A program made the position numbers and the translations under genes. Under the pieces are notes generated by a model, which saw only the letters and a program-made list of their open reading frames with translations, was not told the origin of the DNA and made no database searches. A stretch of DNA of 64,000 nt from Actinomycetota bacterium. Lineage in GTDB: Bacteria > Actinomycetota > Acidimicrobiia > Acidimicrobiales > Ilumatobacteraceae. The stretch spans positions 523 to 64,522 of the forward strand of contig CAUJEE010000124.1 in the NCBI GenBank assembly GCA_963169215.1, in the 5' to 3' direction. Below are positions 7,976 through 61,234 of the stretch, piece after piece (the stretch's first letter is position 1; every line of letters starts with the position of its first letter).

Positions 7976-8607
7976 ATGGAGTCGCGTTGTCGTCTGGTCG
8001 TGTTGGCATCGGGCAACGGCTCGAACGCCCAGGCGGTGATCGATGCCTGCAACACGGGCACACTGCCCGCCACCGTGGTGGCAGTGGTGAGCGACAAGGC
8101 CGATGCTCGCGCCCTCGCCCGCGCGGATGCAGCCGGCCTACCGGCGGTGCACGTCGGAAAGCGACCCGACGAGACGCGTGCCGACTACGACGCCCGCCTG
8201 GCCGACATCGTGAGCGGCTTCGACCCCGACTTCGTCGTGCTCGCCGGGTGGATGCGCATCCTCACCCTCAGCTTCCTCGGTTGGTTCCCGGGCATGGTGA
8301 TCAACCTGCACCCTGCACTCCCGGGCGAGTTCCCCGGCACGCTCGCCATCGAGCGCGCCTTTCGCGAGGCTCGCGAGGGCAGCCGGGACAGCACCGGAGT
8401 GATGGTGCACCTGGTGCCCGACGAAGGTGTCGACAGCGGGCCCGTGCTCGCGACGGCGAGAGTCGACATACTCCCCACCGACACACTCGACACCCTGTGC
8501 GAACGCATGCACGCGACCGAACACCACCTGCTGGTCGACACCCTCCACCGCCTGTGCGCAGAACGTCTCACCGAACGAACCTCGTCACCCCGAAATGGAG
8601 CCAAGGT

Positions 8608-8611
<4 letters not shown>
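7976..8611 (+). CDS. purN: GAR formyltransferase
   Basis: Motifs: [19 protein letters not shown] and [13 protein letters not shown]. The stop overlaps the guaB ATG. Confidence 0.9.
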
Positions 8612-10107
<1,496 letters not shown>

Positions 10108-11577: not shown

Positions 11578-11585
11578 GGTACGCC

Positions 11586-12452
11586 CTACTTGGTCGCCGA
11601 CAGCTCTTTGGCCGCCTTGGCGATGTCGGTCTGGTACTTGAGCAGGATGTGCAGCGTTTCTTTGGCCTGCTGGGCGTCGATGTGCTCGATCCCGAGCAGC
11701 ACCAGAGTGCGCGCCCAGTCGATCGTCTCGCTCACACTCGGCGCCTTCTTCAGGTCGAGCTGGCGGATGCTGCGCACGATGCGGGCGATCTGGTCGGCGA
11801 GGTTGTCGCTCACCTCGGGCACCTTGGTGAGCACGATCTGCTTCTCGCGGTCCATGTCGGGGTAGTCGACGTGCAGGTAGAGGCAACGGCGCTTGAGCGC
11901 CTCGCTCAGCTCGCGGGTGTTGTTGGAGGTGAGGAACACCAGCGGGATCTGCTTGGCAGTGATCGTGCCCAGCTCGGGGATCGACACCTGGTACTCGGAG
12001 AGGATCTCCAGCAGCAGCGCTTCTGTCTCGACCTCGACACGGTCGACCTCGTCGATCAACAGCACCACCGGGTCGTCGGCGCTGATCGCTTCCAGCAGCG
12101 GCCGGGTGAGCAGGAACTCGTCGCTGAAGATGTCATCGTGCACCTCGCTCCACGAGTCGCTCGCCCTGTCGGCTTGGATGCGCAGCAACTGCTTCTTGTA
12201 GTTCCACTCGTACAGCGCCTTCGACTCGTCGAGCCCCTCGTAACACTGCAGACGGATGAGCCGCGCGCCGGTGACCTCGGCGATGCTCTTGGCCAACTGC
12301 GTCTTGCCGGTGCCTGCCGGCCCCTCCACCAGCACCGGCTTGCCCAACCGGTCGGCGAGGAAGGCGACGCCGGCAATACCGTCGTCGGCCAGGTAGTGGA
12401 CGTCGCGCAGCCCGTCGCGGACCTGCTGGACGCTCTCGAAACGATGAGCCAT
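11586..12452 (-). CDS. MoxR/CoxD-type AAA+ ATPase
   Basis: Walker A GPAGTGKT and Walker B LLIDEVD. ATG 12452 (MAHRFES...) was preferred over the ORF-track start at 12524. Confidence 0.85.
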   Translation of the reverse strand: MAHRFESVQQVRDGLRDVHYLADDGIAGVAFLADRLGKPVLVEGPAGTGKTQLAKSIAEVTGARLIRLQCYEGLDESKALYEWNYKKQLLRIQADRASDSWSEVHDDIFSDEFLLTRPLLEAISADDPVVLLIDEVDRVEVETEALLLEILSEYQVSIPELGTITAKQIPLVFLTSNNTRELSEALKRRCLYLHVDYPDMDREKQIVLTKVPEVSDNLADQIARIVRSIRQLDLKKAPSVSETIDWARTLVLLGIEHIDAQQAKETLHILLKYQTDIAKAAKELSATK

Positions 12453-25943: not shown

Positions 25944-26828
25944 TCAACCGCTGCGGCGCAGGGCAGCGAGGGCGCGCACGCCCTGCGGGCCGACTCCGCA
26001 GCAGCCGCCGATCAGCCGCGCTCCAGCAGCCAGCCATGTCGGCACCAACCCCGGGATCTCCTCACCGCCGGTGGGTCCCACCCAGCAGTCGTGCTCCGCG
26101 TCCCACGCCGCGCCATGGTTGGGATAGACCACGAGCGGGGTCGCGAGCGGCAACGCCGACAGCGAACGCAGCAACGGCGCGACGTACCGCGGTGCCGTGC
26201 AGTTGACTCCCACGGCCGTCACCTGCCCGGCCACCCGCTCCGCGGCATCGGCGAACATGTCGCCGCTGCAGGTGTGCCGGTCGTCGGAACAGGTGAATGC
26301 CACCCAGGCCGGCGCGCTCGACCGGTTGCGCAACTCCTCGACCACGATCTCGGCCTCGGCCGCCGACGGCATGGTCTCGATCGCGAACACATCGGGCTCG
26401 GTGTCGACCAACACCGCCAACCGCTCGCGATGGAAGGCCCGCACCTCGGCCCACGAAGCCTCGTAGCGGCCGCCGTACTCGCTGCCGTCGCCGAGGCAGG
26501 CGCCGTAGGGCCCCACCGAGCAGGCCACCACGTCGGCGCCGGCAGCACGCGCGAGACCGGTGGTAGCGGCCAGCAGCCGATGGGCCTGCTTCGCCTCCAC
26601 ACCCGCGGCCATGAACCCGGGCACACTCGCTTGGTAGCTGGCAGTGATCACCACGTCGGCGCCGGCTTCGACGTACAGTCGGTGAGCGGCTGTGATCACC
26701 TGTGGGCGGTCGATCAACGTGGCCGCGGTCCACAGCAAGCCGGCGGGGCGCTCACCCAACTGTTCGAGCGCGGTCGACAGGCCGCCGTCGATCACCGTGA
26801 ACGGCTCGCGCAGCAACGTGCCGATCAT
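25944..26828 (-). CDS. mmuM: Homocysteine S-methyltransferase (MmuM/YagD type)
   Basis: [28 protein letters not shown]. Confidence 0.85.
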
Positions 26829-27601
26829 GCCGGACGCACTTCGATTCCCGCCGCACTCATCGCCGCCTTTGCCTCGGCGATGGTGTACTCGCCGAAGTGG
26901 AAGATGCTCGCTGCCAGCACGCCGGTGGCTCCGCCAGCCGTGATCCCCTCCACCATGTGCTGCAGCGTACCCACCCCGCCGCTGGCGATCACCGGAACGC
27001 CCACCGCGGCGGTGATGGCCCTGGTGAGAGCGAGATCGAAACCCTCCTTGGTGCCGTCGCGATCCATCGACGTGAGCAGCACTTCACCCGCCCCGAGGCG
27101 GGTCGCCTCGGCTGCCCACCGGACGGCGTCGATGCCCGTGGGTGTGCGCCCGCCGTGGAGGTAAACCTCGAACCCGCTCTCGATCTGCGCCGAGGGCGCG
27201 GTGCTCTTGGCATCGATCGCGCACACGCAGCACTGCGCGCCGAACTCGGCCGCGATCTCGCCGATCAGCGCCGGACGCTGCACCGCAGCGGTGTTCACCG
27301 ACACCTTGTCGGCCCCGGCGCGCAGCATCCGGCGAGCGTCGTCGACGGTGCGGATGCCTCCGCCGACGGTGAACGGGATGAACACCTGCTCGGCGGTGCG
27401 GCGCACCACATCGGCCATCGTCTCGCGGGCGTCGCTCGACGCGGTGATGTCGAGAAACACCAGCTCGTCGGCGCCCTCCGCGTCGTACCGTCGGGCGAGC
27501 TCCACCGGGTCGCCGGCGTCGCGCAGGCCGACGAAGTTGACGCCCTTCACCACCCGACCGGCGGTGACGTCGAGACAGGGAATCACACGCGCGACCATCA
27601 C
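26825..27601 (-). CDS. hisF: Imidazole glycerol phosphate synthase cyclase subunit
   Basis: [28 protein letters not shown]. It has 4-nt overlaps with both neighbours. Confidence 0.95.
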
Positions 27602-34615: not shown

Positions 34616-35686
34616 ATGACCACCACTGCCGCCAGCCTCTACGCGGTCAGCCGCGACGAGCTGTCGGCGTGCCTCAGCGGCGAGCCGCGCTACCGCCTCG
34701 ACCAGGTGTGGGCCGGGCTGTACACGCAGTTGGCCGCGCCCGGCGACATCACCAATGTGCCCAAGGCGCTGCGCGAGCGGCTGGCCGCCGAGTTGCCCAC
34801 CGCGTTGACCGAGGTGACCAGGCAGGTGAGCGACCGCGGCGACACGGTGAAGTTCCTGTGGGAATTGGTCGACGGGCACCGCATCGAGACGGTGCTGATG
34901 GTGTACCCCGACCGGGTGACCGTGTGCATCAGCAGTCAGGCCGGGTGTGCGATGGGTTGCGGTTTCTGCGCCACCGGTCAGGGTGGCTTCCAGCGCCATC
35001 TCGACGTCGGCGAGATCGTCGAGCAGGTCGTGCGCGCCGGCCGCGAGGCGCGGGCGATGGGGCGGCGCCTGGCCAACGTGGTGTACATGGGCATGGGCGA
35101 ACCACTGGCCAACGAGGTCGCGGTGTGGGCCAGCATCGAGCGCCTGCACGAGGCGGTGGGGCTGTCGGCCCGCCACCTGACGATCAGCACCGTCGGCCTG
35201 GTGCCCGGCATCCGCACCCTGGCCACCAGGCCGTTGCCGGTGAATCTCGCCGTGTCGTTGCACGCGGCCAACGACCGCCTGCGCGACGAGTTGGTGCCGA
35301 TCAATCGCCGCTACCCGCTCGACGAGCTGATCACAGCCTGCCGCGACTACCTGCGCGCCAAGGGGCGCCGGCTGAGTTTCGAGTGGGCGTTGATCGACGG
35401 CGTAAACGACCGCGCCCGCGACGCTGCCGAGCTGGCCAAGCTGTGCCGCCGCCTGCCGCTGCCCGCGCACGTCAATCTGATCCCGCTCAACCCCACCGAG
35501 GGCTACCCCACTGTGGGGTCGCCGCCGGCGCGCGTGCACGAGTTCCATCGTCTCCTCACCGACCTGGGGGTGAACGCAACCGTGCGTCGTAACCGCGGCA
35601 CCGACATCGATGCCGCCTGCGGACAGCTGGCCGCCGGGCGACCGGTGACGGTCCGGCGCGAGCGCCCACAGTCGACACCGAGCTAG
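34616..35686 (+). CDS. rlmN: 23S rRNA/tRNA A-C2 methyltransferase RlmN (radical SAM)
   Basis: CAMGCGFCATG and the C-terminal DAACGQL. ATG 34616. Confidence 0.9.
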   Translation: MTTTAASLYAVSRDELSACLSGEPRYRLDQVWAGLYTQLAAPGDITNVPKALRERLAAELPTALTEVTRQVSDRGDTVKFLWELVDGHRIETVLMVYPDRVTVCISSQAGCAMGCGFCATGQGGFQRHLDVGEIVEQVVRAGREARAMGRRLANVVYMGMGEPLANEVAVWASIERLHEAVGLSARHLTISTVGLVPGIRTLATRPLPVNLAVSLHAANDRLRDELVPINRRYPLDELITACRDYLRAKGRRLSFEWALIDGVNDRARDAAELAKLCRRLPLPAHVNLIPLNPTEGYPTVGSPPARVHEFHRLLTDLGVNATVRRNRGTDIDAACGQLAAGRPVTVRRERPQSTPS

Positions 35687-35721: not shown

Positions 35722-36852
35722 TCAGCCGGGCGGCGCCGGGCAGTGTGCCAGCAGGGTGAGGTAGGGGTTCACCGCGTCGCCGTTACCAGGGTGGATCTCG
35801 AAGTGCAGGTGGTAGGTGCTGGCGTTGCCGGTCATCCCCACGTAGCCGAGTATCTCGCCCTTGGTCACCTTGCCGACCGCGCCCCAACTGTCGAGGTGCG
35901 CGTAGTAGTAGTAGTTGCCGTCAGTGCCCAGCAGGCTGACGGTGTTGCCGCCGAGTTCGTTCACCTTCGGCTTGGCCACGCCGTCGACCACCGCCAGCAG
36001 TGGTGTGCCCTGAGCGGCGATCACATCGGTGCCGTAATGCACCCTGCCGCCAGGACGAGGAGCCAGCCAGGTGTCGGCGAAGCCGACGTTGGCCGAACCG
36101 GTGGGGCACAGCCAGTCGACGCCGGCCCAGTTGCGCTGCACCGAGCTGGCCCGGCCCCCACTGCCCGTGGTGCCGCCGGATGCCGCCGGCTCGGACGCGC
36201 TGCGCGAGCTCTTGGTGGTCGCCGCCGCGGCACGCGCTGCCGCTTCCGCCTCGCGCCTTTGCTGCTCGGCCAGTGCCTTGCGCACCGCCTCGTCCTTCAA
36301 TCGCTGTTTCTCCACCTGCTTGAGGTGTTCGACCTCGGCCTCGGCCGTCTCGCGCAGCTTCACCAATCTGGCCTGCAGGTCTTCGGTGCGGCGCTGCTGG
36401 GCGGTGAGCGCGCGGCGCTTGTAGTCGAGGTCGCTGTTCAGCGCATCGAAGTCGTCGAACTGGTCGGTGGAGGTGTCGTTCACCACTTCCGACAGGGCGC
36501 GCACCTGCAACTCCTGCATCGGCGTGTCGAACCCGGTGAGCAGCGGTAGGTCGATGCCCGTGCTGAGTGTGAAGCGCCGCACCGCCGCCTGTTGCACGAG
36601 ATTGCGCAGGTCGTCGACCTGGCGTTCGAGCACGTCAACCTCGGCCGCGATCCGCGCCTGTTCGGCGCCCAACTCCTGCAACTCGCCCTCGGCCCGGAAG
36701 TACGCGTCGGCGGCGTCGTTGGCTCGGTCGCGGGCGGCGGCGATCTCGCGTGCGGCCTGCTCGGCGGCGCTGTCGTCGGCCACGGCAGTGCGCGCGGGGA
36801 GCAGCGGGGCCGCCACGCAGAGCGTGAGCGCGAGTGCGGTGAGCGTGCGCAC
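35722..36852 (-). CDS. Secreted coiled-coil M23/LytM metallopeptidase
   Basis: Signal peptide MRTLTALALTLCVAAPLL, a long heptad-rich region, then HYGTDV and HLHFEIH. Confidence 0.85.
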   Translation of the reverse strand: MRTLTALALTLCVAAPLLPARTAVADDSAAEQAAREIAAARDRANDAADAYFRAEGELQELGAEQARIAAEVDVLERQVDDLRNLVQQAAVRRFTLSTGIDLPLLTGFDTPMQELQVRALSEVVNDTSTDQFDDFDALNSDLDYKRRALTAQQRRTEDLQARLVKLRETAEAEVEHLKQVEKQRLKDEAVRKALAEQQRREAEAAARAAAATTKSSRSASEPAASGGTTGSGGRASSVQRNWAGVDWLCPTGSANVGFADTWLAPRPGGRVHYGTDVIAAQGTPLLAVVDGVAKPKVNELGGNTVSLLGTDGNYYYYAHLDSWGAVGKVTKGEILGYVGMTGNASTYHLHFEIHPGNGDAVNPYLTLLAHCPAPPG

Positions 36853-36901
36853 GTGAACAAGCCTAACCGATGTTGCAGTCGCGTTACACCGCGCGCAGGG
36901 G

Positions 36902-37720
36902 GTGCGACACGCCTATCGTGACCGGCCGATGGCCGATCCGCTGGTTCTCTCCGGGGTAAGTTTCGTGCGCGACGGGCGTGCCGTCCTCGCCCCCCTCGAC
37001 TGGCGCGTGCGCGACGGTGAGCGATGGCTGGTGGTGGGCGCCAACGGGTCGGGCAAGACCACCCTGCTGCGCATCGCCGCGCTCTACGAGCATCCTTCCA
37101 GCGGCGAGGTCGACGTGCTCGGCGAGCGGTTGGGACACACCGACATCCGCGTGCTGCGCCGGCGCGTCGGCTACCTGTCGGCCGCCTTCGCCGCCCAGTT
37201 GCGGCCGCAGCTGCGCTGCCTCGACGTGGTGATGACCGCTCGCTACGCAGCACTCGAGCCGTGGTGGCACCGCTACTCCGCCGCCGACGAGCAACGCGCC
37301 CACGAGTGCCTGCAACGCATGGGGGTCGACTGGCTGGCCGAGCGCACGCTGGGCACGGTGTCGTCCGGCGAGCAGCAACGCGTGCTGCTGGCGCGCACGC
37401 TGATGAACGAGCCCGGCCTGCTGCTGCTCGACGAACCGAGCGCGCGGCTCGATCTCGGTGGCCGCGAGCAGTTGGTGCAGGCGCTGGCCGAACTGACCCT
37501 CGACTCCACCGCGCCGCCGCTGGTGCTGGTGACCCACCACCTCGACGAGGTGCCCGCGGGCATGACCCATGTACTGATGCTGCGCGACGGGCAGGTGGTT
37601 GCCGCCGGGCCGATCGACGAGTGGCTCACTGCCGCCACGCTCAGCGACTGCTTCGGGCTGCCGTTGCACCTCGAGCGGCGCGCCGATGGGCGCTACGGCG
37701 CGTGGTACCGCGCCGACTGA
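36902..37720 (+). CDS. Stand-alone ABC ATP-binding protein
   Basis: Walker A GANGSGKTT, signature SSGEQQRV, Walker B LLLLDEP. No permease is adjacent. The start may be 36929. Confidence 0.85.
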   Translation: MRHAYRDRPMADPLVLSGVSFVRDGRAVLAPLDWRVRDGERWLVVGANGSGKTTLLRIAALYEHPSSGEVDVLGERLGHTDIRVLRRRVGYLSAAFAAQLRPQLRCLDVVMTARYAALEPWWHRYSAADEQRAHECLQRMGVDWLAERTLGTVSSGEQQRVLLARTLMNEPGLLLLDEPSARLDLGGREQLVQALAELTLDSTAPPLVLVTHHLDEVPAGMTHVLMLRDGQVVAAGPIDEWLTAATLSDCFGLPLHLERRADGRYGAWYRAD

Positions 37721-37742
37721 CGGCTGACGCGCACAGAGGCGA

Positions 37743-38192
37743 TCAGTCGGCGGCGGTGGCCAGTTGCACCAGGCGCTCGCGGCCCGCGCTGATCTGTTCG
37801 GCGAGCACCTTCTCCAGCACTCCCCCGGTCCACAGGCCACCGCCGTAGTGCAGGTGCATCTCCAGCCGGGTGCGCCCGCCGTATTCGCCCAGATCGGCGG
37901 AGAGCACCCACGGGCTGTGGCGACGGCCGTCGACCTCGGCCCGCTCGAACACCACCCGCCCGACGGCCTGGTCGTGCACGGTGCGCCGCATGCGCAGCCG
38001 CTTGCTGCGCGCGAACGGGCCGACGCGGGCGCGCAGTTCGACGTCCCACTGCGGGTTGCCGTCGTCGGCCGGAGGCAGCGGATCGGCGCGATGCACGAGA
38101 TCGACCCACGACGGGTAGCGGGCCAGGTCGTCGACGAAGCGGAACAACGTGTCGGCGGCGCAGTCGGCGTCGAGCACGGCATGCACATCCAT
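37743..38192 (-). CDS. SRPBCC (START/polyketide-cyclase-like) family protein
   Basis: The size and the pattern DDLARYPSWVDLV...RTRLEMHLHYGGG match this family. ATG 38192 was preferred. Confidence 0.5.
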   Translation of the reverse strand: MDVHAVLDADCAADTLFRFVDDLARYPSWVDLVHRADPLPPADDGNPQWDVELRARVGPFARSKRLRMRRTVHDQAVGRVVFERAEVDGRRHSPWVLSADLGEYGGRTRLEMHLHYGGGLWTGGVLEKVLAEQISAGRERLVQLATAAD

Positions 38193-38318
38193 TCCCGCCA
38201 GTATCGCCGATTCACCGCTTGCCGCACAGCTGTCGCGCTGGCGCGCACTCTCCACCACGGATCGCTCACAGATCGATCACATCTGTCGGTGATCATCCGC
38301 TTGTCAGGATCCCAACCG

Positions 38319-38726
38319 ATGGAGGACACCCCGATGGACACAACCCCCACCCGCCACCGTCTGCGCCGACTGGCCATCTCTGTCGCCGGCATCGCGGTGG
38401 TTGCCGGCCTCGGCTTCGGCGGCGTCGCTTCCGCCGCCGGCGAGGACGACACCAGCGGCGAGCGCCCGGCAGCCACCGCTCGCGTGAGCAACGAGGAGCG
38501 CTGCGAGAAGGCAGAGGCAATCCTCGCCCGGGCCGACGCCCTGCTGGCCAAGATCGCCGACTTCGAAGCGCGGCTGGCCGAGCTGAAGGAGAAGGCGATC
38601 GAGGCCGGCCGCGAAGAGCTCGTCGAGCGCATCGACCAGTGGCTGGCCCGTCTTGCGGCCCTCACCGACAAGATCGAGACTCGCATCGCGCGGGTCGAGG
38701 CCTGGGTCGGCGAACACTGCGACTGA
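38319..38726 (+). CDS. Small exported or membrane-anchored helical protein
   Basis: RHRLRRLAISVAGIAVVAGLGFGGVASA signal or anchor, then about 90 aa of amphipathic helix bracketed by two Cys residues (ERCEKAE...GEHCD). Confidence 0.55.
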   Translation: MEDTPMDTTPTRHRLRRLAISVAGIAVVAGLGFGGVASAAGEDDTSGERPAATARVSNEERCEKAEAILARADALLAKIADFEARLAELKEKAIEAGREELVERIDQWLARLAALTDKIETRIARVEAWVGEHCD

Positions 38727-38742
38727 ACCCGTAGACAACCCT

Positions 38743-38780
38743 CGCCGGCGGCGCCCACCCCCCGGTGGGCGCCGCCGGCG
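38743..38780. terminator. Perfect 17-bp stem / 4-nt loop hairpin between convergent genes (bidirectional terminator candidate, no U tract)
   Basis: cgccggcggcgcccacc-cccc-ggtgggcgccgccggcg. Confidence 0.6.
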
Positions 38781-38787
38781 CGTGTGG

Positions 38788-39357
38788 TCAGGAAGCAGAG
38801 CCGGTGGGTGGGCCACCCGCGTCGGCGGCGTTCGCGCCGCGGGCCTTCTTACCGGCAGGCGGCGACTGACCGCGGAACGCCCGCGACAACAGAGGCGAGC
38901 GAGCCTGCAGCAACCCGTCGAGGTCGTCGTTCTCGTCGAACTTCGGCCGCCACGGCGAGAACGGCGTCGGGTCGACCGGTTCAGCGCTGCCCTGGCCGTC
39001 TGGTGCCGGTGTCGGGCGCGACTGCTCGGTGGGCACCAGTTCCAGCTGGCCGGTGTCGTCACCGCTCGCCTGACGGCGCGGACGACGACGGCGCGCCTTG
39101 GCCGGAGTAGGTGTTGCCGCAGCCTTCGTCGCGGACTCGGCGCGAAACAGTGGCGGAGCCGCTTCGCGTCGGTCTTCAAGCGACCAACCGCGGGGCACCA
39201 CCATCGCATCGGCATGTTGCCGGCACAGCGCCCCCACCCGCGCCGCCAGCGCCTCGTCGTACGCGTCGAGCCACACGGTGAGCGTGGTGGAGGACATGCC
39301 GTACAGCACCTCCGCCGGCTGCGTGCAGCCGGGCCGTTCGCAGTGCGACGCCATCAT
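38788..39357 (-). CDS. DUF3499-like actinobacterial protein
   Basis: MMASHCERPGCTQPAEV...LCRQHADAMVVPRGW, followed by a Pro/Arg-rich tail. Confidence 0.6.
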   Translation of the reverse strand: MMASHCERPGCTQPAEVLYGMSSTTLTVWLDAYDEALAARVGALCRQHADAMVVPRGWSLEDRREAAPPLFRAESATKAAATPTPAKARRRRPRRQASGDDTGQLELVPTEQSRPTPAPDGQGSAEPVDPTPFSPWRPKFDENDDLDGLLQARSPLLSRAFRGQSPPAGKKARGANAADAGGPPTGSAS

Positions 39358-39406
39358 CGCGAACCTACTCTGCACCCGCCCAGCCGGGCGCCGCGGGTTG
39401 CAGCCG

Positions 39407-40315
39407 CTACGCGTCGGGATCGCCGGCGGCGAGACGCTCGAAGTAGGTGCGCAGCGTAGTGGTGCCGAGCGGCGGGCCGACACCGTCGACCTCGCCCGCG
39501 ACGACGATGAACTCGGCCAGGTCGCCGATCTGCTTGGAGAGGCGGCGCAGCACCCGCACCAATCCGCGGGCGACGCGCATCGACACCACCGTGATCTTCA
39601 CCCGCTTGCCCACGACGGCGAACGCCAACTCGGCCGCCTCGCGTTGGGTCATCACTTCCGGCCCTCCGGCCACAACCTCCACGCTGCTGCGCTCCACTGC
39701 GTCGACGCAGATCGTGGCCAGGTCGCGGCCGTGAATCGGGCTCATCCGGTTGCTGCCGTCACCCACCAGGAACACCCGGCCGCGTCGGGCCATGGTGAGC
39801 AGCGCGCCCATGTCGGAGAAGTAGCCGCAGGGACGAATGATGCGGTGCTCGAGGCCAGAGGCACGCAGCTCGGCCACCACCGCCTCGTGTGCCCTGGTGA
39901 TCGCCAGATCGGCCAGCGCGGCGTCACTGGCGCCTTGCAGCGAGACGTACTCGAACAGCTGCACGTCGGCTGCCGTGGCCAGGTCGATCAACGTCTTGTT
40001 GCACTGGTGATCTACCTGCTCGAAGGTCAACCGGTCGCGCTGGCGCGAGATGCCCACGCTGGAGAACACGATGTCGATCCCGTCCATCACGCCCGCGAGC
40101 GTGGCGGGCTTGGTCAGCTCGCCGACAAACACCTCGTCGACATCGTCCACCCCGATGGCGGGCGCGGTGAACGGGCCGCGGGCGCGCAACCGCTCCTCGC
40201 TGCGCGTGAGGGCGCGTACCCAATAGCCACGCGCCTTGAACTCCCGCACGACGAACTTGCCCACATAGCCGGTCGCCCCGGCCACCAGCACTCGCCTGCC
40301 GCCGGTTTCGTCCAC
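39407..40315 (-). CDS. NAD(P)-binding atypical SDR / NmrA-like protein
   Basis: Rossmann motif VLVAGATGYVGKFV. Confidence 0.75.
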   Translation of the reverse strand: MDETGGRRVLVAGATGYVGKFVVREFKARGYWVRALTRSEERLRARGPFTAPAIGVDDVDEVFVGELTKPATLAGVMDGIDIVFSSVGISRQRDRLTFEQVDHQCNKTLIDLATAADVQLFEYVSLQGASDAALADLAITRAHEAVVAELRASGLEHRIIRPCGYFSDMGALLTMARRGRVFLVGDGSNRMSPIHGRDLATICVDAVERSSVEVVAGGPEVMTQREAAELAFAVVGKRVKITVVSMRVARGLVRVLRRLSKQIGDLAEFIVVAGEVDGVGPPLGTTTLRTYFERLAAGDPDA

Positions 40316-40479
40316 GGCACGACCCTACGCCGCCGGCAGACGGGCCACAGCACCACTACGCCCCGCGCCGCCCCCAGAGCGCCCCTGTCCATGGGCGCGA
40401 TTCCTCCCAGACGCTGGGGGCAATCGCACCCGTGGGCGCGGAGTCCATCGAGTGCGGGATCAATCGCGCCCAATACTGT

Positions 40480-40555
40480 TGGTGGGCGCAGAGGGACTCG
40501 AACCCCCGACATCTTCCTTGTAAGGGAAGCGCTCTACCAGCTGAGCTATACGCCC
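40480..40555 (-). tRNA. tRNA-Val (anticodon UAC), CCA encoded
   Basis: Minus strand: GGGCGTATAGCTCAGCTGGTAGAGCGCTTCCCTTACAAGGAAGATGTCGGGGGTTCGAGTCCCTCTGCGCCCACCA. It folds as a cloverleaf with loop CTTACAA. Confidence 0.9.
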
Positions 40556-40595
40556 GCGGACGGGACAATCAGGCTACCCGCCCGCGCTGGGCGCG

Positions 40596-41351
40596 CTACT
40601 CGGCGCGGGCTGCGAGCAGCGCGGCGAGCAACTCGGGAGTGGCCGCGGCCACGGGGGTGCGACGGGCGGCGTGCTCGAGCACCATCAGGTCGCGGCCGTG
40701 CAGGTCGGCGACCGCGCCGCCGGCCTCCTGCACGATGAGCGCGCCGGCCATGTAGTCCCACGGGCCGTGGGCCTCCACGTCGAAGTCGACATAGCCGTCG
40801 AGCGTGCCTGCGGCCACCTGACACAAGTCGAGCGCGACCGCGCCGAAGATGCGCGACTGGCAGGCCGCGAACGGGCGTGAGGGCAGCGCATTGAGTCCGA
40901 CCAGTGCCTCGGACATGTCGCGGCAACCCGAAGGCCGCAACTCCGACCCACCGCCCAACAGCGCCCCGTCACCGCGCCAGGCGCCTGCGCCGCGCACGGC
41001 CCACCACCGCTCGCCAGTGGCCTGGTTGGCCACCAGCGCCGCCTGCGCCCCGTCGGCGCCCACCCAGCACAGCGAGGTGCCAAACCACGGCACACCGCGG
41101 CTGGCGTTGGTGCTGCCGTCGATCGGGTCAACGACGATCGCATCCACGCCGGCACCCGGCTGCCATCCGCTCTCCTCCGACAGCACACCCAGCCCGGCGC
41201 GCCGGATCACCCCGATCGCGGCCTCGTCGGCCACCAGATCGAGCGCGTACTGCCCCTCGCGCTGCCCCGACGGCCCAAAGTCGCGTACCTCGCGGAAGGC
41301 CGTGGCCACTGCGTCGGCGATCTCGTGCAGCAGGCGCAGGCGGTCGTCCAT
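40596..41351 (-). CDS. Inositol monophosphatase family protein (IMPase, HisN or CysQ type undetermined)
   Basis: DPIDGSTN and WDYMAGALIVQEAGG. ATG 41351. Confidence 0.8.
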   Translation of the reverse strand: MDDRLRLLHEIADAVATAFREVRDFGPSGQREGQYALDLVADEAAIGVIRRAGLGVLSEESGWQPGAGVDAIVVDPIDGSTNASRGVPWFGTSLCWVGADGAQAALVANQATGERWWAVRGAGAWRGDGALLGGGSELRPSGCRDMSEALVGLNALPSRPFAACQSRIFGAVALDLCQVAAGTLDGYVDFDVEAHGPWDYMAGALIVQEAGGAVADLHGRDLMVLEHAARRTPVAAATPELLAALLAARAE

Positions 41352-41393
41352 CACCCACACACGGTAATCTCGACGTCGTCGGCATCCACCTGC

Positions 41394-41448
41394 GCCGAAC
41401 CAGCCGAACCAAGCCGAACCAAGCCGAACCAAGCCCAACCAACCGAAA
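41394..41448. repeat. Tandem 10-bp repeat GCCGAACCAA, about 5.5 copies
   Basis: gccgaacca gccgaaccaa gccgaaccaa gccgaaccaa gcccaaccaa ccgaa, lying in the 111-nt divergent intergenic region. Confidence 0.9.
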
Positions 41449-41462
41449 GGGGCCGACCAGCC

Positions 41463-42029
41463 GTGGCAGTAATCGACGTCGCCGGATTCGTGGCCGACCT
41501 CAAGGGCCACGCGGTCGATCACGGCTTCCACGTGCACGACGAGCGGCACTTCGTCGAGACCTACTCGCTGCGCCAACTGTGGGAGGTCGACCTGCACCCG
41601 GAGGAGGCCTGCAACGGCCCGATCGACTTGCACCTGTCGCTGGAGGTCGACCCGCGGGCGCTGCTCGGGTTCGAGGACGAGGTGCTCAAGCTCGACGACC
41701 CGGAGGACGACCCGCCCACCGGGTTCACCTTCCCGCTGATCTTCACTTGGACCCTGCCCCCGCTGCCCCACCCGCCCGACCTGTTGGTGCTGGCCACCGA
41801 ACTGGCCGGCGTCGGCGGCGTCGGGTTGCCGCTGGAGGTGTCGGCGATCGACTCGTTCGCCAGCGTCACCGACGCCCCCGAGCGCAGCCTGTCGATCGTC
41901 GCCCGCATACCCGTCGATCTCGCCGACGTGTACCTCGCCGAGGACAAAGCCTTCTGCGACACTCTCGACCGCTGCCGCGAGGCCAGCCTGTTCCTGCTCG
42001 ACCGTGCCGGCCACTGGCTCGGTGAATGA
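41463..42029 (+). CDS. Hypothetical protein (188 aa), family not recognised
   Basis: GTG 41463 lies 10 nt after GAAAGGGG. The protein is acidic and Pro-rich with coding-like composition. Its stop overlaps the next ATG. Confidence 0.55.
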   Translation: MAVIDVAGFVADLKGHAVDHGFHVHDERHFVETYSLRQLWEVDLHPEEACNGPIDLHLSLEVDPRALLGFEDEVLKLDDPEDDPPTGFTFPLIFTWTLPPLPHPPDLLVLATELAGVGGVGLPLEVSAIDSFASVTDAPERSLSIVARIPVDLADVYLAEDKAFCDTLDRCREASLFLLDRAGHWLGE

Positions 42030-42319
42030 AAGGGCGCGAGATGCGCGTGCGTGAACTGATCGACATCCTCAAGGACCAACCACCCGACGCCGAGGTAGAG
42101 CTGGCGGTGGTGGCACCGGTGACCGACGACGACGACGACGAGATCACCGTCGACCGCTACGGCATCGACGGCATGCTGCCCTGGCACGACGAGGACGACG
42201 ACGGCAACGACGAAGAGTTGGTGATCTGGCTGGTGGGTGGCGAGGCCGACGACGTGGAGGCCTTCCTCGACGCGATCGAGCACCAAGGCCCAGGAGCCGA
42301 CAACAGCCTCGGAGCCTGA
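42026..42319 (+). CDS. Small, very acidic hypothetical protein (97 aa)
   Basis: ATG 42026 overlaps the upstream stop (ATGA). Sequence: MRVRELIDILKDQPPDAEVELAVV...DDDDDE...DEDDDGNDEE. Confidence 0.5.
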   Translation: MKGREMRVRELIDILKDQPPDAEVELAVVAPVTDDDDDEITVDRYGIDGMLPWHDEDDDGNDEELVIWLVGGEADDVEAFLDAIEHQGPGADNSLGA

Positions 42320-42360
42320 CCCCGTCGGAGCACTCCCGGCGCTGCCGACGCGCTCTGTGC

Positions 42361-42990
42361 TCAGGGCCGCCGGGCGTAGAAGGCGAAGCCGAACACCTCG
42401 AAGGCGCGCGCCTTCTCCTCGCCTTGGGCGCCGCCGAACGTGTCGACCGGTGGGCCGATCTTCACGTCGGTGAAGCCAATCTCTTCGAGCATCTTCTGCC
42501 AGCCCTCACGGGGCAGCCCGCCGGCAATTCAACCGGTCCACAGGTCGACGTCGCGTATCGCCTCCTCGGGCACCGGACGGCCGTTGGCGATGTCGGCGAA
42601 CTGCAGCGTGCCCCCTGGACGCAGCACTCGGAACACCTCTCCCAGCGTGGCGGCTTTGTCGGCGCAGAGGTTGAACACGCCGTTGGAGATCACCACGTCG
42701 GCCCAGCCATCTTCCACCGGCAGCTCCTCGGCGTAGCCCTCGCGGAAGTCGACGTGGGAGAACTCGAGGTGGATGGCCGTGGCCCGCGACTTCTCGAGCA
42801 TCTCCGGTGTCATGTCGACCCCCACCACCGCCCCGTCGCGCCCCACCGCCAGCGCTGCGACGAACGAGTCGAAGCCGGCACCCGAGCCGACGTCGACCAC
42901 CCGTTCGCCGGTGAGCAGCGCTCGCAGCGAGAACGGATTGCCGACGCCGGCGAAGGATTCGACTGCCCGGTCGGGCAGCCTGTCCACCAC
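42361..42990 (-). CDS. ArsM-like class I SAM methyltransferase interrupted by one in-frame TGA (42529-42531); candidate selenocysteine codon, otherwise a pseudogene
   Basis: VVDVGSGAGFD, VGVDMTPEML, VLRPGGTLQF, ...DVDLWTG-TGA-IAGGLPREGWQKMLEEIGFTDVKIG...FGFAFYARRP-stop. The start is uncertain (GTG 42990 or CTG 43026). Confidence 0.7.
42496..42516 (-). other. SECIS-like hairpin downstream of the in-frame UGA
   Basis: CUGCC-CC-GUGA-GG-GCU-GGCAG. The loop G and U fall at +23/+24 counted from the U of UGA. Confidence 0.4.
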
Positions 42991-43029
42991 AGCCGGGTCG
43001 TACCCGAGGATCGCCGCCGCGCTCAGTGA

Positions 43030-44460
43030 TCAGGCGTCGAGCACGCTGGCCGCGGGCAGCAGGGTGACGTCGAAGAAGGCGAAGAACTCCTTGGCCGACT
43101 TGCGCAGATAGCGGTAGGTGTTGCTACCCATCCGCCGGTCGAGGAACACCGGCTGCAGCGAGCCATCGGCGTTGTGCACGAAGGTGAAGAAGTTGGGCCA
43201 GGTGCCATTGATGTCGAGCTGCACCGCCTTGACGCAGCCGACGTTGATCAACGACTGCGCCATCTGCCCGGCATCGACCTTGCCCACCAGCAGGTAGGCG
43301 AGGCGTCCGTCGCCCAGTTCGCACACCGCCGAGCGGTTGACGTACACCTCGCGGCCGTAGTCGGCACCCCACCACACATCCCTGGTGGATTCGGCGCCCA
43401 CCATCGACACGCCACCATCGACCATCAGCTTCAGGTTCTGGCGAATACTCACCCACGAGCCGTCGTCGACGATCTCGCGCCCGAGTTCGCCGATCACCAT
43501 CTTGCCGTCGCGACCGATGGCGATCGTCGCCTCACCGACGAGCAGTGGCTTGAGCACCTGCCCCTCGGTCACATACCCGCCGCGGATGTGCTCGAAGCGA
43601 AAGCCGCTGTTCATCGCCACCACCAATGAGGCGTAGAGCTCGGTGGGCACGTGGTCGTCGCGCGTCCAACTGCCGCCAGGCTCCTCGTCGCCGTTGAACA
43701 TCGCCGCGCGCAGGTAGGTCTGGTCGATCACCGCCATCGATGCCACCACGCCTCCCGCGGCCGGGAAGGGGCGGATGCTCGTCGCCCACACCGCTGGTTG
43801 GCCACCGGCGGTGGCGATCGCGGTCCACTGCCCCTCGCCCGCGAGGGCGGGGGCGAACCAGGTGGGCAGCGGCGCGGGGGCCGCTGGCACGGGGATGGTG
43901 GTCGGTGGTGGGGCGGTGGACTCGGGAGGTTCGGGGTTGGCCGGGGTGGTGGTCGTAGTGGTGCGGGCGGTCAGCTCGTCGTCGAGCGACAACTCGTCAG
44001 CCGGTTCCACCGAGGGGGGTTGGTCGTAGGTCTGCGCCTCCAGCCAGTCGATGATCGGCCCGTACCCGTGGTCGCGACCCCAGGTGGCCATCCGCTGCTG
44101 CAACGGGTCGGCGGTGTTGTGGCGAGTGACGTACAACAACAGCGACGTGGCGTTCCACAAGCCGAACGCGACGACGAGCGCGCCCGCCACCACCCAACCC
44201 GTGCGCCGCTGCCTGGCCGACGACACGCCAGCCGAGCCTTGCCCAAGCCTGTGCCGCGACAGGGTCACCGCCAGCGCCGCCATCGCGAGCAGCGCCCCGG
44301 TGGCCAGTGCTCCCAGACCTCCGGTCAGCCACATGCCCCAGATCGCGGTGGCCGTCAGCCCGACGAGCAGCGTCAGCGACACCCATGGGCGCAGCCGCCG
44401 AGCGGCTCGGCGCAGCGCAGGCATCGACTCGTTCGCGGCGCGCGCGGGCGGGCTGGTCAT
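43030..44460 (-). CDS. Membrane-anchored phosphodiester glycosidase family protein (DUF2233/NAGPA-like)
   Basis: N-terminal TM segments and a Thr/Pro linker, then IRQNLKLMVDGG...RSAVCELGDGRLAYLLVG...AVQLDINGTW. The start at 44460 is preferred because 44550 would overlap sodA. Confidence 0.7.
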   Translation of the reverse strand: MTSPPARAANESMPALRRAARRLRPWVSLTLLVGLTATAIWGMWLTGGLGALATGALLAMAALAVTLSRHRLGQGSAGVSSARQRRTGWVVAGALVVAFGLWNATSLLLYVTRHNTADPLQQRMATWGRDHGYGPIIDWLEAQTYDQPPSVEPADELSLDDELTARTTTTTTPANPEPPESTAPPPTTIPVPAAPAPLPTWFAPALAGEGQWTAIATAGGQPAVWATSIRPFPAAGGVVASMAVIDQTYLRAAMFNGDEEPGGSWTRDDHVPTELYASLVVAMNSGFRFEHIRGGYVTEGQVLKPLLVGEATIAIGRDGKMVIGELGREIVDDGSWVSIRQNLKLMVDGGVSMVGAESTRDVWWGADYGREVYVNRSAVCELGDGRLAYLLVGKVDAGQMAQSLINVGCVKAVQLDINGTWPNFFTFVHNADGSLQPVFLDRRMGSNTYRYLRKSAKEFFAFFDVTLLPAASVLDA

Positions 44461-44497
44461 CGGCCCGATGCTAGGTGCACGCCTCGGCCGGGTGGGC

Positions 44498-45100
44498 TCA
44501 GCCGCGCCTCGCGGCGGCGAGCCGGGCCGCCACGTTGCCCCAGTCGACAATCGTCCACAGCGCTTCCACGTAGTCGGCCTTCACGTTCTTGTACTGCAGG
44601 TAGAAGGCGTGCTCCCAGATGTCGAACACCAGCAGCGGGGTGGTGCTCGGCGAGTGGTTGGCCTGGTGATCCTGGATCTGCTCCACCAACAGTCGCCCGC
44701 TGAGCGAGTCGTAGGAGAGCGCGCCCCATCCAGAGCCCTGCACGGTGTTGGTCGCCGCAGTGAGGTGCGCGCGAAACTTCTCGAAGCCACCGAAGTCGCG
44801 GTCGATCGCCTCGCCCAACGCCCCCTCTGGCCGGTCGCCGCCATCGGGTGAGAGGTTGGTCCAGTAGATCGAGTGCAGCGTGTGCCCGGCGAGATGGAAG
44901 GCAAGCGTCTTCTCCAGGCCGACGATCGAACCGTAGGAGCCGGCCTCGCGAGCCTCGGCCAGTTGCTCGAGCACGGTGTTCGCGCCGGTGACGTAGGCGT
45001 TGTGGTGCTTTCCATGGTGCAGCTCGATGATCGACCCGCTGATCGCCGGTTCGAGCGCCGAGTAGTCGTAGGGCAGATCGGGGAGTGTGTAGACAGCCAT
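44498..45100 (-). CDS. sodA: Fe/Mn superoxide dismutase
   Basis: [33 protein letters not shown]. Confidence 0.95.
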
Positions 45101-45165
45101 GCAGGAATCGTACCGGCGGGCGGCATGCCCGCCGGTCAGGTGGTTGACGGCCGCTGGCTTTCGCG

Positions 45166-45238
45166 TGGGGCGGGTGGGGATCGAACCCACGACCGAGGGA
45201 TTATGAGTCCCCTGCTCTGACCACTGAGCTACCGCCCC
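45166..45238 (-). tRNA. tRNA with CAU anticodon (elongator Met, or Ile2 if lysidinylated); CCA not encoded
   Basis: Minus strand: GGGGCGGTAGCTCAGTGGTCAGAGCAGGGGACTCATAATCCCTCGGTCGTGGGTTCGATCCCCACCCGCCCCA. Confidence 0.85.
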
Positions 45239-45337
45239 GAAGCGGTTGACGACAGGCTCACGATACGGCCTGGCACAGACCCGACACAGACCCGACCGTG
45301 AACGGCGAACGGCCCGCACTGGGCGGGCCGCCGGCGC

Positions 45338-45413
45338 TGGCTCCGAGAGCAGGGCTCGAACCTGCGACCCGCTGATTAACAGTCAGCTGCTCTGCCAACT
45401 GAGCTATCTCGGA
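45338..45413 (-). tRNA. tRNA-Asn (GUU), CCA encoded
   Basis: Minus strand: TCCGAGATAGCTCAGTTGGCAGAGCAGCTGACTGTTAATCAGCGGGTCGCAGGTTCGAGCCCTGCTCTCGGAGCCA. Confidence 0.9.
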
Positions 45414-45444
45414 AAGGCAACCAGAGGATAGCAACCGGCCGCGA

Positions 45445-46716
45445 TCACTCCTCCTCCAAAAACTCCTTCAGCCGCTGGCTGCGCATCGGGTGGCGCAGCT
45501 TGGCGAGGGTCTTGGCCTCGATCTGGCGGATGCGCTCCCGGGTGACGCCGAACTCCTTGCCGACATCCTCCAGCGTGCGCGCCTGGCCGTCGTCGAGGCC
45601 GAAGCGCATGCGCACGATCTCCTGCTCGCGCTCGCTCAACTCGCCCAGCGCCTCCTCCACCGCCTGGGTGAGCATGCGCTTGGTGGCCATGTCGGCGGGG
45701 GCGTCGGCCGACAGGTCTTCGATGAAGTCGGCCAGGTTCGAGTCGTCCTCCTCCCCCACCGGCGAATCGAGCGACAGCGGGTCTTGGCTGATGCGCAGTA
45801 TCTCGCGCACCCGCTCGAGGGTTATCCCACAGCGGTCGGCCAGCTCCTCCAGCGTCGGCTCACGCTCGAGCTCCTGGTGCATCTGGCGCTGCGTGCGTAG
45901 CACGCGGTTCATGCTCTCCACCATGTGTACCGGAATGCGGATGGTGCGCGCCTGGTCGGCGATGCTGCGCGTGATCGCCTGACGGATCCACCACGTGGCG
46001 TAGGTCGAGAACTTGAACCCCTTCGTGTGGTCGAACTTGTCGACCGCCCGCATCAGGCCGAGGTTGCCTTCCTGGATCAGGTCGAGGAACTGCATGCCGC
46101 GACCGCTGTAGCGCTTGGCGATGCTCACCACCAACCGCAGGTTGGCCTGGATCAGTTCGCTCTTGGCCCGCTGGCCGGCACCCACCGTGCGCAACAACCG
46201 TCTCTGCCCGGCAGCGTCGATCGCGGCCCCCTCGTGCACTGTGTCGAGCACCACTGCCGCCCGGTTGCCGTCGTCGATCGCCTGCGCCAGCCGCCGCTCG
46301 TCCTCGGCGGTGAGCAGGTCGACCCGCCCGATCTCCTTCAAGTACATGCGCACCGTGTCGTTGGTGCCCATGTCGTGGCGGTCGGCGTTCATCCGCTCGG
46401 CGCGTCGGCGGCGTCGACGGGCCAGGAGGCCGTCGGTCTCCTCCACCGCATCGGGGCGATCGACTCCCGCGGGCGGGGTCTCCTCGGGCAGTTCGTCGAC
46501 GCGCTCGTCGATGGCGACGCCGAGACCGGCCAGCACGTGCTGCACCTCCAGCAAGACCTCGCTGGTGAGCTCGACCTTGCGCAGCACGTGGGCGATCGAT
46601 TCGGCGTGCAGCACTCCCCCGGCGACCCCGCGCTCGACCAACGCCTGCCACTCGTCGGCGTCGATCTCCGCGCAAGGTGGTGGCACGGTGCCCGCGTCGA
46701 ATGTGCCGTCGCTCAC
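45445..46716 (-). CDS. rpoD: Primary-type sigma-70 factor
   Basis: [55 protein letters not shown] 46716 lies 5 nt after the dnaG stop. Confidence 0.9.
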
Positions 46717-59951: not shown

Positions 59952-61234
59952 CCCGCGAGAGCACAGGCACCGGCGACAGCAACGAGGTGCTCACCGAGAT
60001 CGACCGCACCGACGATGCGCTGGCCGGCAGCAACCTGCTCGTCGACCTCGCCCCGGGTATCTTCGGTCAGCAGCAGGCGGGCTGGCTGGTGACCATCGAG
60101 ACCGACGAAGGGTTGGTGCAGATCGACACCGGCGATCAGGCGCAGGCATCGCTCGCCGCCATTCGCTCGCGCACCGATGCAGTGTTCACCGACATCGTCT
60201 TCAGCCACGGCCACCAGCGCTACAACCTCGCCTGCCGCGACTGGGTGCTCGACTGTGTGCGCACCAGTGGGCGGGTGCCGCGCGTGATCGCCCACGAGAA
60301 CGTGCCCCGTCGGCAACGTCGCTACCAGGAGTCGAGCGGACTGCAGAATCGCCTGCTGGAGCGTCAGTTCCGCTACCCGAAGGGCTCGTTGGAGGGTCGA
60401 CAGTTCCCCTTCACCACCCCTACCCACGTGTTCCGCGACACGTTCGTGATCGATGCACCCGGCCGGGTCATAGAGGTGCACCACGCACCGTCGGAAACCG
60501 ATGACGCGGTGGCCGTCTGGCTGCCCGGCGACAAGGTGTTGTACGGCGGGCCGGCGTGCATCCCGTTCTTCCCCAACGTCGGCAGCCCGCAACGACCGGT
60601 GCGCGACCCTGTGCGCTGGGCCGACACCCTCGACCGTCTCGCCGTCTTTCCGGCCGAGGTGCTGATCTGCGAGTTCGGCGATCCCGTCCGTGGCCACGAG
60701 CAGATCGCCGACTACCTCGCCTCGACCGCCGCGGCGTTGCGTTGGTGTCATCGCACGGTTGTGGAGTTGATGAACGAGGGGCGCAACATCGCCGAGATCG
60801 TCAACATCGTCGAGTTCCCCACAGAAGTATTCGACCGACCGTGGCTGGTGGAGGGCTACACCTCGCTCGAACACGTCCTACGTGACGTGTATCGCACCCA
60901 GTTCGGCTGGTGGGAAGACCTCAACCCCACGTCGCTGCACCCGGCTCATCCGACCGACGTGGCCCGCGAGTTGCGCGCGGCCGTTGCCGACCCGCAAGCA
61001 GTACTTGATCGCGCTCGCGCGCTGATGCAGGCAGGCCAAGTGCAACTCGCGCTCCACGTCGTCGACCTGCTTGCGCTCGGCGACGCTGCCGACGCGCCCA
61101 CGGCGCAGGCCAAGCAGTTGAAGGCCGAACTGTGTCGGGCCGCGGCGCTGGCGAATCCCTCGTACGTCACGCAGAGCCTGTACCTCAACGGCGCTGACGA
61201 ACTCGACCGGGCCGCGGTTGAGGGCGATCGATGA
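59948..61234 (+). CDS. MBL-fold alkyl/aryl-sulfatase-like protein (type III sulfatase family) with a degenerate metal motif
   Basis: ATG 59948 overlaps the upstream stop. SHGHQRY stands where the family has HSHxDH. An alkyl-sulfatase dimerisation-domain-like part follows: [21 protein letters not shown]...[14 protein letters not shown]. Confidence 0.65.

Follow-up and report, generated by a model that had tools for sequence, protein, structure and literature searches.

The in-frame TGA at residue 202 of an ArsM-like SAM methyltransferase is very probably a selenocysteine (Sec) codon with a SECIS-like hairpin behind it, as judged from conservation among the relatives of the gene. A sequence-only reading of the window (the whole 64-kb stretch of DNA that was analysed) had proposed a candidate selenoprotein at this locus. 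The proposal is supported by the codon found at this column in related loci, by a switch from TGA to TAG, by selection downstream of the codon, by frozen synonymous sites, and by covariation in the stem of the hairpin. It follows that a first-stage reading of raw sequence can find a real selenoprotein gene. The copy of the gene in the window is truncated, and the window itself therefore carries small biological weight.

The methyltransferase gene in the window

The minus-strand ORF at 42529–42990 begins with a GTG and ends in ...DVDLWTG, directly followed by the in-frame TGA (Table 1). Past this TGA, the same frame continues as IAGGLPREGWQKML...FYARRP for 55 codons up to a second TGA. In the minus-strand translation, the residues after the Sec codon start with IAGGLPREGWQKMLEEIGFTDVKIGPP and end with FYARRP (IAGGLPREGW...FYARRP). 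The ORF, the TGA after DVDLWTG, and the 55-codon continuation had all been described in the sequence-only reading and were confirmed on the sequence. The assignment to the class I SAM methyltransferases agrees with the Pfam domains found in the ORF, Methyltransf_31, Methyltransf_11, and Methyltransf_25 (Methyltransf_31 E = 7e-30). No obvious Shine-Dalgarno sequence was seen by eye in the window before the GTG.

Table 1. Features of the methyltransferase locus (positions in the window)
Feature	Position	Strand	Basis or remark
ArsM-like SAM methyltransferase remnant	42361..43020	-	codons 39–257 and stop of the intact gene (L001, L082–L089)
GTG called as start (153-aa product P0001)	42988..42990	-	internal codon, Val49 in the intact gene
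In-frame TGA, probable Sec codon (residue 202 in the intact protein)	42529..42531	-	codon column and ArsM alignment
SECIS-like element (nt +15 to +34, counted from the U of UGA)	42498..42517	-	synonymous freeze, RNAalifold, variant-B covariation
55 codons after the probable Sec codon, C-terminal part of the enzyme	42364..42528	-	conservation, synonymous-only differences
True stop codon TGA	42361..42363	-	frame reading
Deletion junction, ACTGAGC in place of 219 nt	43021..43027	-	same-species contig alignment
Upstream gene, weakly NAGPA-like (phosphodiester glycosidase)	43030..44550	-	weak Pfam-level match

An open continuation of 55 codons is unremarkable on its own, having an estimated chance of ~0.3 at 69% G+C. 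As the folding energy of the hairpin is ordinary too, the significance of the observation must come from the comparison with relatives. TGA is the normal stop of 24 of the 31 Pfam-supported genes of the window, which argues that the genetic code is not reassigned. The other pairs of same-frame ORFs in the window that are split by one stop were rejected as ordinary adjacent genes. These pairs are L21/L27, a GroES-like and a radical-SAM-like gene, a homocysteine methyltransferase and an aldo-keto-reductase-like gene, and a TerC-like gene and DnaG, most of the names being taken from a reading of the translations. The window also encodes a molybdopterin oxidoreductase (61222–63492), which is uninterrupted, scores below all NCBIfam cutoffs, and is uninformative on Sec use.

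The 5′ truncation of the window copy

In the JGI contig L001, the same gene has 48 extra N-terminal codons (product P0002), and at least 27 contigs from a large number of sequencing runs encode the 201-aa product exactly or nearly so. Eleven contigs from the same species or its sister lineage (L001 and L082–L091) have been aligned with the window. All eleven have the same neighbors, an intact 5′ end, and a 257-codon gene with an N-terminal part of 201 codons, and the window alone lacks 212 bp, seven nucleotides of unrelated filler having replaced 219 nt at the junction. The missing DNA spans the whole 5′ leader with the promoter region as well as the start codon and codons 1–37. With it, the family-invariant residues D8, L12, R13, K19, Y20, V23, P27, and H32-F-H-T-G-R37 have been lost, of which H32, F33, H34, and R37 are 100% conserved in the family. 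The TGA stop of the upstream gene (43030–43032) is in frame with the remnant, whose retained sequence starts 9 nt later. The sequence-only reading had expected a full-length protein of ~23 kDa; this figure has to be corrected to an estimated ~28 kDa for the intact protein of 257 aa.

Compared with the same-species contigs, the remnant shows 1–2 substitutions. One is H253Y, seen in the window alone, and the other a synonymous site at codon 235 that is polymorphic. It has 0–1 mismatches per 300 nt and lies in a block of near-zero divergence. The idea that the methyltransferase is unusually conserved relative to its flanks was rejected, since the binned divergence is a mosaic of 0% and 3–8% blocks throughout the region. 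The near-identity outside the lesion indicates either that the deletion is recent or that it is an assembly artefact. A recent real deletion is the somewhat favored explanation, in which case expression of the window copy as a functional enzyme is improbable; with its 5′ end lost, the locus probably makes no functional protein. The less probable explanation, though one of some weight, is that the gene is intact in the organism and that the 212-bp deletion arose during metagenome assembly or binning. The intact gene in all other checked contigs of the species, from many samples, and the absence of further decay in the almost identical remnant are in its favor. On the other hand, the junction is more than the simple collapse of a repeat, as it combines a 7-nt non-homologous filler with flanking substitutions, and such junctions are seldom invented by short-read assemblers. 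Strain-level indels are also common elsewhere in the same alignment.

Relationship to ArsM enzymes

The closest solved structures are ArsM enzymes, namely that of Chlamydomonas (5EVJ, E = 1e-29) and the Cyanidioschyzon 4FS8 group (~4e-26). The alignable part spans ~190–220 residues in 5EVJ and in 4FS8, 4FR0, and 4KW7, and covers the SAM motif GxGxG as well as the C-terminal Cys loop. By comparison with these structures, the protein of the window clade is missing the C-terminal domain of ArsM and is shorter by ~120 residues. In the alignment, the TGA column is matched by the Cys in ...L(L/Y)GEC(L)(A/G)GAL, the third As(III)-binding Cys, which is Cys224 in the usual CmArsM numbering. The placement of the TGA at a metalloid-binding Cys in the sequence-only reading is thus borne out by the Cys of 5EVJ and the 4FS8 group.

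The other two catalytic cysteines of ArsM are located in the motifs GCGNP and SNCV and correspond to Cys72 and Cys174 of CmArsM, the latter an As(III) ligand. The GCGNP Cys is replaced with Val (GVGNP) in the window, as it is in all 109 matched homologues, in accordance with the sequence-only reading, which had noticed that it is missing. A second loss had escaped that reading: the SNCV Cys is replaced with Gly (SNGV) in the window and in all 115 matched homologues. At the same time, the C-terminal As(III)-binding position is retained as the TGA (Sec) codon. Eight residues before this column, a second Cys is present in 96 of 109 Cys forms, while the Sec forms mostly have Arg.

The NCBIfam model NF008823 ("arsenite methyltransferase") has a cutoff of 263 bits; the intact protein scores 212 bits and the Cys-form protein P0005 scores 233 bits, both below it. 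Over the methyltransferase domain, the best NCBIfam matches are NF041537 (239 bits), NF041536 (207 bits), and NF047649 (196 bits). Their cutoffs of 510, 575, and 460 bits, respectively, are far above these scores and place the protein outside these fusion families. Based on the alignment and the scores, the window protein is best described as ArsM-like and not as a certified ArsM.

The codon at the probable Sec position in related loci

The codon at the Sec column has been compared in 160 related loci from two collections, 80 loci from species-representative genomes (64–77% identity, tblastn) and 80 loci retrieved from metagenomes by means of a Cys-form query. The comparison of Cys with TGA in relatives, which the sequence-only reading had suggested, gave TGA in 148 loci, TGC in 10, and TAG in two. 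In the genome loci, the codon is TGA in 77, TAG in two, and TGC in one, and the tblastn alignment crosses the stop in all 80. The metagenome loci (n = 80), an independent set, have TGA in 71 and TGC in 9. The taxa of the genome loci include Acidimicrobiia, Egibacteraceae, Streptosporangiaceae, Pseudonocardia, Rhodospirillaceae, Hyphomicrobiales, Burkholderiales, and Binatia.

Both TAG loci (L052 and L070) belong to the Geodermatophilaceae, one to Modestobacter and one to Blastococcus. This is the family reported to have a tRNA-Sec whose anticodon is CUA, as well as TAG-coded selenoproteins (Mukai et al. 2016, as cited in Santesmasses et al. 2017, PMC5330540). The codon thus follows the variant tRNA-Sec anticodon, and for a change of stop identity in step with this anticodon, an explanation other than Sec is hard to find.

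At the protein level, Cys is found at the Sec column in 109 of 110 full-length matches. The matches in the protein database are mostly 258-aa Cys forms; the database is rich in Cys forms because gene callers truncate the TGA forms. A protein of Blastococcus deserti (P0003) has Trp at this column (DLWTGWIAGG).

A SECIS-like hairpin downstream of the codon

The sequence downstream of the codon occurs in two variants. Variant A, that of the window, reads GGG CUG CCC CGU GNG GGC UGG and encodes G-L-P-R-(A/E/V)-G-W, and variant B reads GG(C/U) CUG CCG UGY GCA GGC UGG and encodes G-L-P-C-A-G-W. Synonymous codon usage has been measured in 44 variant-A sequences over 113 informative columns of four- or six-fold degeneracy, which have a median codon entropy of 1.43 bits. 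Entropies below 0.3 bits are found solely at codons 207–211 (+5 to +9 after the TGA; nt +16 to +30), and codon 206 is the next lowest (0.31).

For 36 unique variant-A sequences, RNAalifold predicts a core of the pairs G18-C30, C19-G29, C20-G28, and C21-G27 closing the loop C22-G23-U24-G25-N26, numbered from the U of UGA. In the window, the core stem is formed by 42514–42511 with 42505–42502, and the apical loop C22 G23 U24 G25 A26 by 42510–42506, so that G23 and U24 are at 42509 and 42508. Position 26, inside the loop, varies between C, A, and U. A lower stem is possible, with G15-C34, C16-G33, and U17-G32 paired and U31 bulged. The window hairpin has just four G-C pairs and a weaker lower stem. 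The hairpin with G23/U24 in its loop that had been proposed from the window alone is retained, while the pairing proposed for it (CUGCC/GGCAG plus CC/GG) is not the best supported. The model of core and lower stem has an energy of −9.8 kcal/mol in the window, compared with −9.0 for the earlier pairing, and the means over all variant-A sequences are −9.6 and −6.7 kcal/mol, respectively.

Variant B is predicted to form a 7-bp stem (13–19 with 25–31) that closes a CGUGY loop. This stem is 93% paired, as opposed to 13–42% when the partners are slid. In 60 metagenome sequences, the pair 18-26 is G-C in 44 and U-A in 16 with no mismatches, a compensatory change, and the CGUGY loop is present in 59. 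Variants A and B have been realigned by codon register with MAFFT, and the stems of the two variants have been compared by eye, which is not a tool result. Viewed in this way, the identical CGUGY loop is displaced by 2 nt between the variants, and in three of the four inner stem pairs both bases differ (C-G/G-C, C-G/U-A, and G-C/C-G). When all 81 sequences are pooled, RNAalifold returns a weak mixed structure since two hairpin registers coexist, and the sequences were then split into variants A and B. Variant A is nearly invariant; as a result, the pairing there rests on conservation and on the analogy with variant B.

The Cys-form loci have not kept this element. In the 9 Cys-form metagenome loci, the hairpin stretch is not conserved, even as amino acids, and the sole Cys-form genome locus (L048) is without the hairpin sequence. 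The folding energy of the window hairpin is not distinguishable from that of dinucleotide shuffles (z = +0.31), 119 of 200 shuffles folding equally well. Of the five sequences folded, four, among them a Cys-form control, have z-scores of −0.18 to +0.55, and L056 has −1.40. Folding energy was dropped as evidence either way in this G+C-rich DNA.

The spacing of G23 and U24 had been likened to that of the E. coli fdhF SECIS, and the numbering indeed matches the fdhF SECIS sequence, which was verified in 5,413 genomes. In fdhF, U17, G23, and U24 matter for SelB binding. The present element resembles the fdhF SECIS in that a hairpin occurs soon after the UGA, with G23/U24 in the apical loop and U17 at a stem irregularity. 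It differs in its stem sequence, its 5-nt CGUGN loop, and, in the variant of the window, its shorter upper stem.

Probable translation past the codon and alternative explanations

The residues after the codon are conserved like the rest of the protein, with a mean top-residue frequency of 0.78 for residues 203–257 and 0.81 elsewhere. Comparing the L001 type with its sister lineage (L090 and L091) gives 7 synonymous and no non-synonymous differences over the 55 downstream codons, and nt 592–650 around the TGA show no change at all. This pattern indicates that purifying selection acts downstream of the TGA. The sequence-only reading had allowed for orthologues that truly end at this point; they do not, and coding conservation goes on beyond it.

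Taken together, the UGA is aligned with Cys in homologues, coding conservation extends beyond it, and a hairpin with a conserved apical loop lies downstream. In intact copies, the ribosome would reach UGA-202. The hairpin located 15–34 nt after it, presenting G23/U24 in the CGUGN loop, would recruit SelB and Sec-tRNA(Sec). Following the established bacterial pathway, Sec would be inserted at position 202, and translation would proceed for 55 codons. None of selA, selB, selD, and tRNA-Sec was found within the 64-kb window, and no tRNA-Sec was found in the flanks of 60 related loci. We infer Sec decoding in the organism of the window from the selection pattern.

A second explanation for the conserved continuation is readthrough of the UGA by a near-cognate tRNA-Trp or tRNA-Cys, stimulated by the hairpin, which would place Trp or Cys at position 202. 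The Trp in the Blastococcus deserti protein would fit such a mechanism, as would the fact that the Sec machinery is not seen in the window. However, TAG replaces TGA exactly in the family whose tRNA-Sec reads UAG, a switch not predicted by Trp or Cys readthrough of UGA. Relatives with a sense codon have Cys, the usual partner of Sec, and the position of the hairpin and its G23/U24 loop fit a bacterial SECIS. In addition, PMC13188914 counts Sec proteins of the ArsM type, with the same UxxG motif, among those verified by experiment. Readthrough is therefore considered very unlikely.

The least probable explanation is that the TGA is a plain nonsense mutation in a decaying pseudogene, left open downstream because stops are rare in G+C-rich DNA: the 5′ deletion of the window copy, the ordinary odds of an open frame of this length, and the ordinary hairpin energy would agree with it, but the same TGA is shared by most of the loci across many bacterial lineages at 64–80% identity, purifying selection continues past it, and synonymous freezing and stem covariation directly follow the codon, an inheritance not expected of a nonsense mutation, so that on these comparisons this explanation stands refuted at the family level.

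Gene neighborhood and possible function

In the window, the gene is flanked by the weakly NAGPA-like gene on one side and by hypothetical genes on the other. Neighbors of the 80 genome loci have been counted by targeted tblastn, an all-against-all clustering of flanking ORFs being polluted by spurious antisense ORFs. An ArsR-type HTH-rhodanese fusion is present at 40 of these loci, in most cases as the immediate upstream gene of the same strand. A rhodanese-domain protein with a metallo-beta-lactamase fold and an MFS transporter are found at 30 loci each. This combination of genes resembles persulfide-responsive detoxification operons.

The rhodanese-rich neighborhood and the loss of two arsenic ligands suggest that a sulfur or selenium species, and not arsenite, may be the substrate. 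The substrate other than arsenic that the sequence-only reading had considered is a reasonable suggestion, as it fits the clade-wide loss of two of the three catalytic cysteines of ArsM. With these two cysteines absent, the single selenol at position 202 would most likely hold or activate the substrate beside SAM. The relatives may carry a four-gene module in which the Sec methyltransferase is joined by an ArsR-HTH-rhodanese sensor, an MFS transporter, and a persulfide-dioxygenase-like protein of the metallo-beta-lactamase-rhodanese type, and the hosts of this module may be aerobic soil and water Actinomycetota and Proteobacteria. As a tentative proposal, for which we would not claim even odds, the clade would not be an arsenic enzyme but a single-selenol methyltransferase for sulfide, persulfide, selenide, or methanethiol acting within this module.

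The H2S/methanethiol methyltransferases MddH and MddM1/M2 have been described as members of the UbiE or UbiG family, with 210 aa in MddM1 and 204 aa in MddM2. Compared by published descriptions, they show no established link to the present clade, and the MddH paper makes no mention of ArsM. The clade retains one of the three catalytic chalcogen residues of ArsM, as Sec, and it thus offers a tractable case for the study of a lone selenol in a SAM methyltransferase.

Comparison with known selenoproteins

Gene callers split the gene into a product of 153 or 201 aa and a spurious 43-aa ORF, and truncated mis-annotation was seen in the gene calls examined (P0001, P0002, P0121, and P0122). Sec is encoded in about 93% of the loci sampled. 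Since the Sec form far outnumbers the Cys form (148 versus 10), the protein is probably widely under-annotated, and its below-cutoff NCBIfam scores leave the Sec form unnamed. The kind of selenoprotein is already known, and the present clade is an under-annotated member of it with a reduced set of catalytic cysteines.

A Sec arsenite S-adenosylmethyltransferase (NF008823, motif UxxG, WP_011987699.1) is listed in Table 1 of PMC13188914 as experimentally verified, with Fomenko et al. 2007 (Science) as the reference. The Sec arsenite methyltransferase family has been reported in 39 organisms, a count that may include the present clade (Peng et al. 2016, PMC5029168). The clade shares with this known enzyme the fold, the position of the Sec (U-I-A-G fits UxxG), the presence of a single Sec, and a SECIS within the coding region. 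Unlike it, the clade falls under the NF008823 cutoff, has lost two catalytic cysteines, and has an invariant HFHTGR instead.

Haft and Tolstoy reportedly added three ArsM-fusion selenoproteins in 2025, namely ArsM/AhpD (NF041537), ArsM/DUF2284 (NF041536), and MTase/UXPK-star (NF047649). The same UxxG Sec site is found in the methyltransferase domain of these fusions. They carry a second domain and 2–3 Sec residues, whereas the protein of the window clade ends at 257 residues and has one Sec.

The Modestobacter and Blastococcus orthologues, with TAG at the Sec column and the same downstream hairpin, resemble the UAG-Sec system of the Geodermatophilaceae, and the switch from TGA to TAG in this family represents a clean natural control for the Sec assignment. 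The UAG-Sec set given in PMC5330540 consists of FDH, UGSC, and AhpC. The methyltransferase is not among these three, and the TAG form would extend this set, while the copy in the window uses TGA.

Cysteine residues around the Sec column

The Sec and Cys forms of the methyltransferase differ in more than the residue at the Sec column, the alignment position of the in-frame TGA. Among the Cys forms (protein matches P0004–P0120), 96 of 109 have an extra cysteine eight residues upstream, giving a CX8C arrangement, a position at which 83% of the Sec forms carry arginine. About 45% of the Sec forms of the genome set have a cysteine seven residues downstream (UIAGGLPC), and the codon of this cysteine also belongs to SECIS variant B.

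Gene neighbourhood and gene calling

In the flanks of the 80 related loci (L002–L081), an ArsR-HTH+rhodanese regulator has been found near the Sec methyltransferase in 40 cases, mostly immediately upstream, while a metallo-beta-lactamase+rhodanese protein and an MFS transporter are each found in 30. None of these three is present in the window. In the contigs with the intact gene, a spurious 43-aa gene (L001:873-1004, L082:3722-3853 and equivalents) has been called within the post-Sec part and the N-terminal part has been called as a 201-aa protein, so that the family seems to be systematically mis-annotated.

The lost 5' end and the rest of the window

The intact gene has a 5' leader (L001:100-230), absent from the window, with a -10-like hexamer TAAGAT and an inverted repeat CCGGGG(N16)CCCCGG shortly before the GTG start. 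The deletion has left the NAGPA-like gene upstream with its TGA stop in the frame of the methyltransferase remnant, 9 nt ahead of the retained sequence (stop and junction at 43021-43032). This shared frame, which would arise at random in one case out of three, is probably a coincidence.

Divergence of the window strain from the same-species contigs is mosaic. Against L082, blocks with 0 mismatches per 300 nt are interspersed with 3–8% blocks over 36000-46000, and this alternation suggests frequent recombination in the population. Neither the homocysteine S-methyltransferase nor the molybdopterin oxidoreductase of the window shows a recoded stop. The short-ORF runs, in which some ORFs are divided by single stops or frame changes, have no Pfam match; either small hypothetical genes or disrupted ones may lie behind them, and they are relevant to assembly quality.

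Coordinates of neighbour genes, other window genes and TAG codons
Feature	Position	Strand	Remark
Recurrent neighbour gene	L004:2330-2980		example
Recurrent neighbour gene	L027:2306-3001		example
Recurrent neighbour gene	L068:1938-3272		example
Recurrent neighbour gene	L009:1683-2993		example
Homocysteine S-methyltransferase	25944-27083	-	NF007020, cutoff exceeded
Molybdopterin oxidoreductase	61222-63492	+	uninterrupted; under all NCBIfam cutoffs
Short-ORF run	5577-7775	-	very high third-position G+C
Short-ORF run	8568-9584	-	very high third-position G+C
Short-ORF run	10430-11641	+	very high third-position G+C
Short-ORF run	34690-35310	-	very high third-position G+C
TAG replacing TGA, Sec column	L052:3601-3603		Modestobacter sp. 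DSM 44400
TAG replacing TGA, Sec column	L070:3601-3603		Blastococcus sp. CT_GayMR16

Stop-codon switch in Geodermatophilaceae

In two loci, L052 and L070, the Sec codon is TAG and is followed by a hairpin as in the TGA loci. The homologue from Blastococcus deserti (P0003, 260 aa) has tryptophan at the Sec column (DLWTGWIAGG), whose codon, TGG, would be a single step away from TAG. Judged from the protein sequence, this tryptophan may be a sense-codon rescue once Sec decoding was lost, or else may mark an inactive enzyme. The TAG selenoproteins that PMC5330540 gives for Geodermatophilaceae are FDH, UGSC and AhpC, the ArsM-like methyltransferase not being among them, and a tRNA-Sec(CUA) has been reported in this family (PMC5330540), with which the TAG at the Sec column of L052 and L070 fits.
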